Part shown: piece by piece, positions 43,844 to 48,865 of the stretch
How the letters are laid out: every line of letters starts with the position of its first letter
Position numbering within the stretch: the stretch's first letter is position 1
From: an uncultured Clostridiaceae bacterium
GTDB lineage: Bacteria; Bacillota; Clostridia; TANB77; CAG-508
Length of the DNA stretch: 64,000 nucleotides
Direction: 5' to 3'
NCBI GenBank assembly: GCA_946998225.1
Contig: CAMPYH010000001.1
Span: 162,428 to 226,427 of the forward strand
Made by a program: the position numbers and the translations under genes
The notes under the pieces: generated by a model
Database searches by the model: none
What the model was told of the DNA's origin: nothing
Seen by the model: only the letters and a program-made list of their open reading frames with translations

Positions 43844-44374
43844 ATGAATGATATAATTCCTGATGAGGACAAAATAGCATATTCAGAAATTCTTTATCTT
43901 CTTGGTACTATGGATCAAAATTATGTACATAAAATACCTAGAGATTTGATAGACTTTTTTAATGAGGTGAGTCTTAAAGGATATAAAGTAGAAATAAAAG
44001 ATAATTTACCAAAATATACCGAAAACTTTAAACCATATACTATAGATTTGTTTAATGTTTTGAATTTAAATTTTTGGTGTGAAGATGAAAAAGAAAAACA
44101 AGATGCAATTACTTATCTTTTAGATAAGCCTGTTGAATTTAAATTAAATGAACAAATGGGAATTGCAAAGGGTACAGGTGGAAATTATTTTCAAGAAATA
44201 CTAGAGAATCAAAAACAAGAAGAAATAACTATAGATAATTTTAAAAAAGAATTTGAGGAAGTAGTTAAACAAAGAGAAGAAAAAAAACAAGAAGAATTAG
44301 AAAAAGCAAAAGATAAAGCAGAAAAAAAAGAGAATTTTTTTCAGAAAATAAAAAAACGTTTTAATAAGGATTAG
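43844..44374 (+). CDS. Hypothetical protein (176 aa), first gene of a 4-gene coupled operon
   Basis: ORF with RBS GAGG upstream; K/E-rich C-terminus. Its stop overlaps the next start. Confidence 0.5.
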   Translation: MNDIIPDEDKIAYSEILYLLGTMDQNYVHKIPRDLIDFFNEVSLKGYKVEIKDNLPKYTENFKPYTIDLFNVLNLNFWCEDEKEKQDAITYLLDKPVEFKLNEQMGIAKGTGGNYFQEILENQKQEEITIDNFKKEFEEVVKQREEKKQEELEKAKDKAEKKENFFQKIKKRFNKD

Positions 44375-45060
44375 TGATGGCGGTAGAAGAAAAAAACTCA
44401 AAAAGCAAGGTAACCATTATAAGGATAATCGTTGCTTTAATAATAATCATTATTGCACTTTCAGTTTTGTCTACAATGCTTAGTAAATTCAAAAAAGAAA
44501 GACAATTACAAAAAAGCACTGAATACAGAAGTGAAAGCAGTAATCAATATGTTAAAAGGCAAAGAGAATCGCAAAATGGTGCCTATGATATTGGTGAGAT
44601 AGACATACCAGATTTATTTGGTACAAGAGTGCCAATCGTAACAGAAGAAAGAAATAGAAATATACAAAATACAGAAAAAAATAAAAATATTAATAAAAAT
44701 ACAAAAGAAAAAACAATAACAGAAAGAGAAAATAGTAATAATATTTTACCAAAACCAAACAAAAGTGTTGAAGAATTAAGAAAGCAAACTTTAAATGAAA
44801 AAGATAAGCTTTTAAAAAAATATAATAATCAAAAAATAGCTAAAAACATTTTTGTTATAAAAATGATTCAAAGAATTACGTTTCCAATCTTAATATCAAT
44901 TTTTATACTTTCATATATTTATGAAATTGCATTTGGATTAAGAGCAAAGAAAAATTGGAAACATGGATTAAAAATAAGAATCATTACAATTATATTATTA
45001 CTTATTACTCAAGTGTTACCATACACATATTTTGTTATTATTAAAAATTGGGGGAATTAA
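44374..45060 (+). CDS. Hypothetical membrane protein (N-terminal TM plus C-terminal double TM)
   Basis: TM helices IIRIIVALIIIIIALSVL, FPILISIFILSYIYEIAF and IITIILLLITQVLPYTYFVII, with a hydrophilic N/K-rich middle. Its stop TAA overlaps the next ATG (TAATG). Confidence 0.5.
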   Translation: MMAVEEKNSKSKVTIIRIIVALIIIIIALSVLSTMLSKFKKERQLQKSTEYRSESSNQYVKRQRESQNGAYDIGEIDIPDLFGTRVPIVTEERNRNIQNTEKNKNINKNTKEKTITERENSNNILPKPNKSVEELRKQTLNEKDKLLKKYNNQKIAKNIFVIKMIQRITFPILISIFILSYIYEIAFGLRAKKNWKHGLKIRIITIILLLITQVLPYTYFVIIKNWGN

Positions 45061-47753: not shown

Positions 47754-47770
47754 ATAAAAAAAGGAGAATA

Positions 47771-48865
47771 ATGTTACAAGTTATAATAGGTCTAGAATTA
47801 ATAGCTATAATATATTTAGTTATATATAATATAAAAATTAAAAATAAATCAAAAGAAATAAAAAGCACAATTTTAAGAGTTGAAGAATTAAGTGTAACTA
47901 GAGATATATTAAATATTGCTGGAAAAAATATAGACTATAAGTCAAAATTTGAGGAAATAAATGAATACATATTAGATAAAACTAAAGTAGCATATTCTAG
48001 TATTGTTTTAAAAGAAAAAACAAGTACTGAAATACTTGCAACTAATATTGATGAAAAAAGAAAAAAAGAACTATTAGAATATTGGAATAAAGAGCCTTTT
48101 TCATCATCATTAGATAAAGATGAAATAGTAAATTTAAAAAAAGATAAAAGTAATGAATTGGAATATCAAGAAGTAGAAACAGATATAATGTCAGCTATGT
48201 TTATTCCAATAGTAAAAGATAAATCATTACTTGGATACTGGCTAATTGAGGATACAAATATAAATAGATTATCAAATATGGACTTAAAGGTAATAAACAC
48301 TATAAAAGAAACACTTATTGAAATAATCAAAATATCTTCATATCAATCAGCATTTGAAATATTAACAAGAGATGATGAATTTACAGAACTTAAAACAAGA
48401 GAATATTTATTCGGAGAATATAAAAATCTTTTGGATAAATTTGATGAATCTTCAGTATTTATGCTTAAAATAAATAATTTAAGAGAAATAAATAAAAAAT
48501 TTGGAAGAGAAAAAGGAAATGAAACTATAACAAAAGTTTCAAAGGTTTTAAAAAAATATATTCAAAATGATTCAAAAGCAGTAAGATATTTTGGACCTAA
48601 AATAGTATTTGTAATACCAAATACAAAGAAAATAAATATGAGTTTTACTGAAGACGAATTATTGCAAAGTTTGGAAATAAGAGATATATTAAATGAACTA
48701 AATAATATTGAAATTAAGAAAAATTTCATATTTAAAATAAAACCAGAAATAAACATTGCATGGAGTACATATCAAAAAAATACAAGACTTCATGTTCTTA
48801 CAGATAATTTAGAAAAAACATTAGACGACACAAAAGAAAAAAATGAAATAATTAAATGTAATTAA
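47771..48865 (+). CDS. Membrane-anchored protein with a degenerate GGDEF (diguanylate cyclase-like) domain, probably catalytically inactive
   Basis: N-terminal TM. The C-terminal domain aligns to the GGDEF fold: LKINNLREINKKFGREKGNETITKVSKVL corresponds to the D.D.FK.iND.yGH..GD.vL segment, and RYFGPKIVFVIPN corresponds to the RYGGDEF(vvll) segment with the GG(D/E)EF motif replaced by FGPKI. Confidence 0.5.
   Translation: MLQVIIGLELIAIIYLVIYNIKIKNKSKEIKSTILRVEELSVTRDILNIAGKNIDYKSKFEEINEYILDKTKVAYSSIVLKEKTSTEILATNIDEKRKKELLEYWNKEPFSSSLDKDEIVNLKKDKSNELEYQEVETDIMSAMFIPIVKDKSLLGYWLIEDTNINRLSNMDLKVINTIKETLIEIIKISSYQSAFEILTRDDEFTELKTREYLFGEYKNLLDKFDESSVFMLKINNLREINKKFGREKGNETITKVSKVLKKYIQNDSKAVRYFGPKIVFVIPNTKKINMSFTEDELLQSLEIRDILNELNNIEIKKNFIFKIKPEINIAWSTYQKNTRLHVLTDNLEKTLDDTKEKNEIIKCN

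Follow-up and report, generated by a model that had tools for sequence, protein, structure and literature searches.

Proteins of the ParA/MinD fold are the main means by which bacteria place things within the cell, and nearly all of those known cycle ATP. A stretch of 64,000 nucleotides (nt) from an uncultured Clostridiaceae bacterium (contig CAMPYH010000001.1, positions 162,428 to 226,427; the whole of this stretch is hereafter the window) raises the question of what such a protein does when its P-loop has no lysine at the Walker-A position and when it is encoded between a small membrane protein and a degenerate GGDEF protein. The organism belongs to CAG-508, a major family of TANB77 (PMC11680825), a clade that has been linked to response to cancer immunotherapy and for which no gene-level biology is described beyond a pilus cluster (PMC11680825). 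A sequence-only reading of the window had seen four tightly coupled plus-strand genes, here called g1 to g4, with the pairing of a pseudo-ATPase (g3) and a pseudo-cyclase (g4) at their core. The four open reading frames (ORFs) were confirmed at 43844-44374, 44374/44377-45060, 45048/45060-47753 and 47771-48865. The pairing, by contrast, proved to be specific to one lineage, as a sister lineage carries g2, g3 and ireB without a GGDEF gene.

Judged by gene order across related loci, the conserved core is g2 and g3 directly upstream of ireB, and g4 is an insertion in one lineage. We propose that g2, g3 and g4 may form a membrane-associated scaffold around a MinD/ParA-fold protein that no longer cycles ATP, serving the organisation of the envelope or of division, a proposal to which we give slightly less than an even chance. 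The genes concerned, with lengths in amino acids (aa), are:

43844 to 44374, plus strand: g1, ORF of 176 aa with ribosome-binding site GAGGT
44377 to 45060, plus strand: g2, ORF of 227 aa, with an alternative start at GTG 44374
45060 to 47753, plus strand: g3, 897 aa from ATG 45060, receiver-like and MinD/ParA-like pseudo-ATPase
47771 to 48865, plus strand: g4, ORF of 364 aa, membrane-anchored, with GAF-like and degenerate GGDEF domains
48882 to 49142, plus strand: ireB (reoM/yrzL homologue), named via the Pfam IreB annotation of related loci
49142 to 49588, plus strand: ruvX (yqgF), ORF named via the Pfam RuvX annotation of related loci
49681 to 50013, plus strand: DUF1292 gene, Pfam DUF1292 at an E-value (E) of 8e-16, final gene of the predicted unit

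Receiver-like and MinD/ParA-like domains assigned to g3 by structure

The N-terminus MKVLFAVS is common to all 120 listed homologues of g3 and lies four codons downstream of TTG 45048, so that the TTG start is unused and the true start is ATG 45060; the ORF of the sequence-only reading therefore stands, and its 901-aa product shortens to 897 aa. At E<=0.001 a word-index search returned over 5,000 proteins, of which some may be low-complexity matches, and the best 120 all had E <1e-140. Scanning g1, g2 and g3 with Pfam, NCBIfam and PADLOC gave nothing usable, and g3 was without any match: it belongs to no curated family in these collections, and against Pfam the window protein had no match at E<=1, the CbiA, AAA_31, ParA, MipZ and Response_reg families included. 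Nor did we find a description of the g3 family in the literature.

Conservation among the homologues is limited to three parts of the protein, namely aa 1-234, aa 445-714 and the last ~20 residues. An AlphaFold2 model made with 100 homologues was confident in these same parts and disordered elsewhere, and a separate model of the N-terminal block reached a mean predicted local distance difference test (pLDDT) score of 87.6. The regions of g3 are:

45060 to 45479, plus strand: aa 1-140, receiver (CheY-like) fold with a degenerate pocket
45480 to 45761, plus strand: aa 141-234, conserved all-helical sub-domain of five helices, pLDDT ~90
45762 to 46391, plus strand: aa 235-444, disordered E/N/K-rich linker, pLDDT <50
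46392 to 47201, plus strand: aa 445-714, MinD/ParA (SIMIBI) fold domain
46461 to 46493, plus strand: aa 468-478, degenerate P-loop FVGTSKNGTSF, with Thr476 at the Walker-A Lys position
47202 to 47687, plus strand: aa 715-876, N-rich disordered tail, pLDDT <50
47688 to 47750, plus strand: aa 877-897, conserved C-terminal amphipathic helix FSGKIADSLKKMREKF

The modelled C-terminal block matched 3ea0 in Foldseek (E 5e-8, target template-modelling score ~0.7) and has the arrangement of the ParA/MinD fold, a seven-stranded sheet with the P-loop between beta1 and alpha1, and aa 1-140 adopt the (beta-alpha)5 arrangement of the CheY-like fold. The five-helix sub-domain that follows the receiver in the model was assigned to no fold class. 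The receiver-like and MinD/ParA-like assignments hold at the level of modelled structure only. Profile-to-PDB comparison with the g3 family gave as its sole sequence-level match the bacterial tyrosine kinase (BY-kinase) CapB at E 0.02; a weak trace of ParA/MinD in sequence was confined to divergent members (P0238 scored 24.7 bits against Pfam CbiA, whose cutoff is 25.4); and hhalign of the family profile against an approximate E. coli MinD sequence returned a probability of 0.09. The CpaE/TadZ-like layout that had been read from the letters is thus right as an architecture but visible only through structure, and of the domains named there the receiver-like and MinD-like ones hold by structure and the GGDEF domain of g4 by its E of 2.6e-12. 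Out of 1.84 billion cluster representatives, a profile of the g3 N-terminal domain found 490 proteins (E<=1e-3); that it finds just these means that ordinary response regulators are not recognised and that the family is small and sharply bounded.

The receiver lacks its phosphorylation pocket, as the sequence-only reading had held. Firstly, the acidic pair after beta1 is missing and replaced by a variable S-N-E; secondly, there is no Lys after beta5; thirdly, beta3 is followed by an invariant E56-D57-L58-E59 (E-[DE]-L-E across the family), in which Glu most likely occupies the position of the phospho-acceptor Asp, positions here being mapped from the secondary structure of the model and not by superposition.

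A near-invariant P-loop without the Walker-A lysines

The stretch GTSKNGTSF, noted earlier as a degenerate Walker A, is indeed present and family-wide. Of 196 unique relatives, 192 carry the pattern F[VI]G[TSA][STG]K[NCA]G[TV]SF; none of the 196 has the canonical lysine, and all have one at a non-canonical position, the invariant Lys473 of the window protein. HMMER aligned nGtS of g3 with GAGKS of CapB, which puts Thr476 in place of the Walker-A Lys, and the AlphaFold2 model places the motif between beta1 and alpha1, as expected of a P-loop. Compared with the deviant Walker A, xKGGxGK[ST], both lysines are missing (GTSKNGTS). Even divergent members that are 28-37% identical to the window protein keep a loop with Lys at position 4, for example FVGANKSGTTF. 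A degenerate loop that is so nearly invariant is under selection, which argues that the loop has kept a function, if not for normal ATP hydrolysis.

A core of g2 and g3 linked to ireB

A scan of one genome per species confirmed at least 562 pattern-matched stretches as g3 relatives, and the 80 loci kept all belong to uncultured Clostridia, with Clostridium sp. CAG:508 and Ca. Merdicola among them. Gene presence was counted by tblastn profiling over 83 loci, which share one housekeeping context: g3 matched in 83, g4 and ireB in 81 each, ruvX in 78, the DUF1292 gene in 74 and g1 in 3. In 81 of these 83 loci, and in all sister-lineage loci, ireB lies 3' of g3 or g4. A g2 homologue lies directly 5' of g3 in 79/81 loci, the other two being contig ends, and the gap between the two genes is 3-5 nt in most of the 48 loci measured. 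Because a 65-290 nt intergenic region is usually found 5' of g2, this gene is normally the first of the unit. The order g3(-g4)-ireB-ruvX-DUF1292 is kept even where g3 is only 28-37% identical to the window protein. The neighbourhood drawn by the sequence-only reading is accordingly conserved in part, with g2 (79/81) and g4 (81/83) kept and g1 (3/83) not, and that reading had overlooked the strongest contextual clue, the invariant linkage to ireB, ruvX and DUF1292.

The sister lineage comprises six species-level contexts without g4 (L084, L086, L087, L088/L089, L090 and L091). Its gene order is a PBP5-type carboxypeptidase (in most), a g2 homologue, g3, IreB, RuvX and DUF1292. The upstream proteins compared with the g2 profile matched it in hmmsearch at E 1e-13 to 8e-34; in L090 a protein of 106 aa, a putative g2 homologue, stands in this place. 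As this lineage is without g4, and g1 is restricted to the sub-clade of the window, the core comes down to g2, g3 and the ireB link.

The two remaining genes of the original four-gene cluster that flank g3 on its 5' side differ in their distribution. The g1 product is a soluble protein with a K/E-rich C-terminus, without a domain match in Pfam, NCBIfam or PADLOC; its only 10 database homologues all fall in the window's sub-clade, and by this distribution g1 is a later addition specific to that sub-clade. By hydropathy, the N-terminal part of g2 holds a signal/anchor helix (aa 13-31), and the C-terminal part a conserved hairpin of helices (~aa 164-186 and 200-221) with a short basic loop. Most g2 relatives have ~135 aa; the window copy, at 227 aa, carries a variable low-complexity insert. 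No reliable Pfam family was found for g2: a match to LptF_LptG (E 4.6e-6, below cutoff) occurred in only 1/37 relatives and was taken as noise from transmembrane composition, and Pfam T4SS_pilin matched weakly in 3/37 (best E 1.1e-5). The topology of g2, a signal peptide and then a helical hairpin, is the same as that of VirB2/TrbC-type pilins, a likeness that may be one of composition only.

IreB/ReoM controls MurA, the first committed step of peptidoglycan synthesis, under the PASTA kinase (PMC7286690, PMC12077105). The window IreB starts MVTDKTVFFN and has a Thr where ReoM/IreB carries the PASTA-kinase phosphosite Thr7 (PMC7286690), so that kinase control of IreB probably operates in this organism.

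The statement that the locus is explained by no known apparatus can no longer be made, since a conserved Tad-like pilus cluster is present elsewhere in the genome in 122/129 TANB77 species (PMC11680825). g3 might be an out-of-cluster TadZ/CpaE-type localisation factor for this pilus, supplying the receiver domain and marking the site of assembly. Its layout, an atypical receiver with a ParA-like domain lacking the P-loop Lys, is like that of TadZ/CpaE; the TadZ-like (231 aa) and CpaE-like (280 aa) proteins within the cluster are too short for a receiver domain (PMC11680825); and in Bdellovibrio, RomR has been proposed to supply receiver-like function in trans (preprint 10.64898/2026.07.08.737194). 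However, no Tad gene stands beside g3: T2SSE, TadB/C and CpaB are absent from the Pfam-annotated neighbourhoods, the 83 profiled loci are housekeeping, and the constant neighbours are ireB, ruvX and DUF1292. The protein also lacks the K/R-G-G part of the TadZ motif and is structurally closer to MinD than to TadZ. We consider a Tad role for g3 unlikely.

Spacers and C-terminal ends of g3

Between its conserved parts, g3 varies widely. The linker, described from the sequence as ~300 aa and K/E-rich, is actually ~210 aa in the window, with E 22%, N 14% and K 13%, and its DNA contains imperfect tandem repeats; the DNA of the tail also contains short imperfect repeats. The tail (aa 715-876) is N-rich, as had been noted (27% Asn, with Q 6%). 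It aligns in only ~6-9 of the 120 listed homologues and, in place of a prion-like tail, is best read, from its composition and distribution, as a poorly conserved, sub-clade-specific low-complexity spacer ahead of the conserved C-terminal helix. A G+C content of ~24%, the same in the window and the genome, favours such Asn-rich runs. A frameshift artefact was ruled out as the source of the tail, as the conserved C-terminal helix follows it in frame.

Residues 881-895 of this helix were modelled at pLDDT ~80. The pattern F[ST]xx[MI]xx[ST]LxxM occurs in 163/201 g3 relatives, with looser variants in nearly all 79 loci that carry both g3 and g4; the window helix has a hydrophobic moment of 0.46 and a charge of +3, and its sequence type differs from that of the MinD tail. 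The type of C-terminal end follows the presence of g4. In 6/6 g4-less contexts g3 ends in KKRRGIFG, GKGLFG, KKKGLFK, KKFFG, GLFKRR or RRGLFG, which resemble the MinD membrane-targeting sequence; with g4 present, it ends in the FSxxMxxTLxxM-type helix in nearly all 79 loci, L092 and L093 having no tail. Automatic classification scored one locus as an exception to this correlation. Read most simply, we infer, this correlation places g3 at the membrane as a peripheral protein in both lineages.

The linkers of most relatives carry a feature that the window protein does not. RGRP AT-hook-like motifs, at least two and up to four per protein, are found in 176/201 g3 relatives (for example KRGRGRPRKNP twice), and Pfam AT_hook matched weakly in P0100. 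The window g3 and its closest relatives (25/201) have 0 such motifs, lacking the R-G-R-P core with flanking basic residues, and the sister lineage has none. Two further observations concern these spacers. In most relatives (e.g. L002 8001-10358, aa 225-520) the linker holds a conserved PVVIPS and two or three LPGF followed by acidic runs; these motifs, absent from the window g3, resemble short linear interaction motifs. The sister-lineage spacer (e.g. L084, P0273, aa 280-560) is a ~250-aa run of QEELRRKAEQEAL-type E/R/K repeats, and since such repeats are typical of stable single alpha-helices or coiled coils, it may be a rigid ruler and not a floppy linker.

AT-hooks suggest that g3, like Noc, RacA or Soj, might tether the chromosome to the membrane or position it there, for instance during sporulation, with the hooks on AT-rich DNA and g2, g4 or the C-terminal helix on the membrane. 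The ParA/MinD fold is in keeping with this, as are the sporulation genes on related contigs (Spo0A, SpoIIAA/AB, sigma F, SpoIID and DpaA). The absence of the motifs from the window sub-clade and the sister lineage, however, marks DNA binding as a clade-specific elaboration and not a core property; moreover, the window linker is net acidic (E over K as given above), and no ParB-like partner or parS-like element lies nearby. As an account of the whole family, a DNA tether seems to us improbable.

g4 and its degenerate GGDEF domain

Hydropathy of g4 showed a single N-terminal hydrophobic helix (aa 1-19), which is followed by a run of lysines. A GAF-like region (~aa 39-187) was matched weakly by profile to 3ci6 and 4g3v in the PDB (E 0.02-0.035), and the GGDEF domain (~aa 196-340) by Pfam GGDEF (E 2.6e-12; 47.2 bits, cutoff 23.8); the family profile found DgcR 6zxb in the PDB at E 1.5e-13. 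These results bear out the earlier description of g4 as a membrane-anchored GGDEF-fold protein with FGPKI in place of the motif:

48590 to 48604, plus strand: FGPKI replacing GG[DE]EF, g4 aa 274-278, aligned to DgcR RFGGEEF

All 80 g4 relatives read RY[MFS]GPK[FIL] here (RYFGPKI in the window), and GG[DE]EF occurs in 0/80. The metal-binding D-x-D is lost, with K-I-N aligned to D-I-D of DgcR, and the substrate residues are gone too. In the 12 residues ahead of the degenerate motif, 0/80 have an RxxD I-site. By these residues, g4 is neither a cyclase nor a canonical I-site receptor.

The idea that the genes form a cyclic di-GMP (c-di-GMP) effector module, raised by the sequence-only reading, is disfavoured by the same counts. 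It would have g4 sense c-di-GMP and control g3, as PelD and BcsE do for exopolysaccharide secretion, and there are parallels, in that the layout of g4 (transmembrane helix, GAF-like domain, degenerate GGDEF) is like that of PelD and the degenerate GGDEF of BcsE binds MinD-like BcsQ (PMC7439463). But the known degenerate-GGDEF receptors bind through the RxxD I-site that all 80 relatives lack, and neither the metal nor the substrate residues are left; the scanned window ORFs include no gene for a polysaccharide synthase or for a PilZ, EAL or HD-GYP protein; and the sister lineage does without g4 altogether. We regard a c-di-GMP module as very unlikely.

A possible membrane scaffold for envelope growth or division

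The proposal of a scaffold formed by g2, g3 and g4 can be set out as follows. At the membrane, g3 would be a static adaptor and not an ATP-driven oscillator. Ancestrally, a MinD-type tail of its own would keep it there; in the window's lineage it would be held by g4, through the membrane anchor of this GAF and degenerate GGDEF protein, together with g2, so that g4 may have taken over the tether of g3, or may regulate it, where it was acquired. The conserved pseudo-receiver and helical head of g3, carried on a 200-350-aa spacer, would recruit a cytoplasmic partner, and in most relatives the nucleoid is a possible partner by way of the AT-hook spacer. The invariant ireB link and, in the sister lineage, the adjacent PBP5-type gene suggest that what is organised in space is envelope growth or division; it is from this context that we infer the function of the module. 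There is a precedent for such an assembly in the MinD-like BcsQ, which is bound by BcsE, a degenerate receiver-GGDEF protein, and is recruited to the membrane by BcsE and the small membrane protein BcsF together (PMC7439463).

Several points weigh against the scaffold. The module has no direct tie to division or to the synthesis of peptidoglycan, and common descent among related Clostridia, in place of function, could account for the synteny with ireB. g3 may still bind nucleotide: TadZ, in work by Xu and colleagues from 2012, is reported to bind ATP even though it lacks the P-loop Lys. The window helix, amphipathic and net positive, could bind lipid directly, which would make a tether by g4 unnecessary. 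Finally, the lack of AT-hooks in the window copy and the sister lineage means that binding to the nucleoid is not a core property.

A bolder version of the scaffold proposal can be stated, which we think doubtful but worth putting forward. In it, g2 and g3 would be an unrecognised MinD-derived positioning system without ATP cycling, hard-wired in the IreB/ReoM (PASTA-kinase) operon and placing or gating division or the synthesis of peptidoglycan across a large group of uncultured, spore-forming Clostridia of the gut; the anchor would have been swapped from a MinD-type lipid-binding tail to g4, and most members would have gained AT-hooks that read the nucleoid.

Two other explanations need only a sentence: a defence system was ruled out by zero PADLOC matches and the housekeeping context, and a link to conjugation or a type IV secretion system (T4SS) was set aside, as the TraG/VirD4 gene of the window is 20 kilobases (kb) away the pilin match was seen in 3/37 g2 members, and the related loci carry no genes of this kind.

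If g3 keeps both its fold and its lysine-less loop within a membrane complex, it would be a plain example of a ParA/MinD-derived pseudo-enzyme scaffold, and g4 would be a degenerate GGDEF domain in use without a recognisable c-di-GMP site. The family occurs only in a small group of uncultured gut Clostridia, relatives of CAG-508/TANB77 among them, and for these organisms the invariant ireB link would be a concrete entry point to how envelope growth is organised.

Predicted transcription unit and other features of the window

The genes around g1 to g4 are all on the plus strand, and their junctions are tight. The g1 stop TAG (44372-44374) overlaps the GTG at 44374 or abuts the ATG at 44377, the latter being the likelier start of g2 as it sits 6 nt past AAGGA. 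The g2 stop TAA (45058-45060) overlaps the g3 ATG at 45060 as TAATG, with GGGGGA preceding the ATG. A gap of 17 nt separates the g3 stop from the g4 start, which has an AGGAG site, and one of 16 nt separates g4 from ireB, which has an AGGAGG site; the ruvX start overlaps the ireB stop. Consensus scans, which are not evidence of function, placed two sites at the ends of this series:

43783 to 43811, plus strand: promoter-like TTGAAA-17-TATAAT 5' of g1, the top plus-strand match in 40-54 kb (11/12 positions), a consensus match alone
50073 to 50093, plus strand: terminator-like hairpin and T-run, the sole plus-strand terminator-like site in 40-54 kb

From the tight junctions, the promoter-like site 5' of g1 and the terminator-like site past the DUF1292 gene, we predict a unit of seven genes, g1-g2-g3-g4-ireB-ruvX-DUF1292, so that the four-gene operon first described is predicted to run on through three more genes. 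Terminator-like sites were no more frequent than the shuffled expectation, which makes the one at 50073-50093 merely suggestive. The short ireB, the overlapping ruvX, and the rbgA, mrnC and hpf ORFs were named by eye or via related loci.

Among the other scanned window ORFs of at least 110 aa there was no match to pilus, flagellar or chemotaxis Pfam families, in agreement with the sequence-only reading. Likewise, minC, minE and divIVA were not found in the scanned window ORFs or in the Pfam-annotated neighbourhoods.

Elsewhere in the window, a TraG/VirD4-type coupling protein (22236-24452; T4SS-DNA_transf, E 5e-79) and a TraX-family protein (15034-15822) are surrounded by housekeeping genes; the window showed no further conjugation genes, and the two may be a remnant of an integrated element. 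A 1009-aa protein (15939-18968) fuses UDPGP (UTP-glucose-1-phosphate uridylyltransferase) to a complete four-domain phosphoglucomutase, so that a single polypeptide covers two successive steps in the making of UDP-sugars. The minus strand at 40221-40472 holds three tRNA genes (Thr, Glu, Lys), with perfect or near-perfect promoter-like sites at 40584-40556 and 40514-40486; the 74-aa ORF at 40210-40434 on the plus strand is a spurious read-through of these genes. The 1204-aa product of 33791-37405 combines a papain-family peptidase C1 with Listeria-Bacteroides repeats and is probably a surface protease or adhesin, and a related Listeria-Bacteroides repeat protein lies upstream of rny in L001. 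Finally, 2185-8312 on the minus strand encodes four proteins of 223-438 aa without a Pfam family and a 554-aa WG-repeat protein; the window has no other sizeable minus-strand block, and the GC skew of this one is negative.

Comparison with known systems

Compared with MinD, and with FlhG/FleN, g3 is without the deviant Walker A KGGxGK[ST], in which both lysines are missing from it, and it adds the N-terminal receiver-like and helical head and the 200-350-aa spacer. No MinC- or MinE-like partner lies near g3, and KKGLFG-type ends like that of MinD are confined to the g3 proteins of the g4-less sister lineage.

With TadZ/CpaE, g3 shares the architecture of a receiver-like and a ParA-like domain. 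It differs in never standing in a tad locus in any neighbourhood examined, in being two to three times longer, and in having the helical sub-domain, the long spacer, AT-hooks in most members and the C-terminal peptide. Of the TadZ motif K/RGGxGxS/T (preprint 10.64898/2026.07.08.737194), g3 keeps G-x-S only, with T-S-K in place of K/R-G-G and its Lys two positions later. Furthermore, the Tad cluster of TANB77 carries TadZ/CpaE-like genes of its own (PMC11680825).

The BcsQ-BcsR-BcsE-BcsF assembly uses similar parts in another arrangement: here the degenerate receiver is fused to the MinD-like protein, g3, and the degenerate GGDEF protein, g4, has its own transmembrane helix and a GAF-like domain. 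The Walker A of BcsQ is canonical. BcsQ binds ATP, as in 6ybb (BcsE-BcsR-BcsQ with c-di-GMP and ATP), which was among the Foldseek matches of g3. Unlike the Bcs vestibule of E. coli-type cellulose secretion, the locus has a g4 without an I-site and no cellulose synthase genes.

PelD has four transmembrane helices and g4 has one. The order of modules is nonetheless the same in both, a membrane anchor, a GAF-like domain and a catalytically dead GGDEF (PMC7439463). PelD senses c-di-GMP through a conserved RxxD I-site that is absent in 80/80 g4 relatives, and no pel genes are found here.

Set beside these systems, the module draws on known parts, namely a positioning protein of the ParA/MinD fold that bears a TadZ-like pseudo-receiver, and a degenerate GGDEF protein. 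Its new features are the conserved lysine-less loop, a small membrane partner that is obligatory, the constant association with ireB, what looks like an exchange of membrane anchor, and the AT-hooks.

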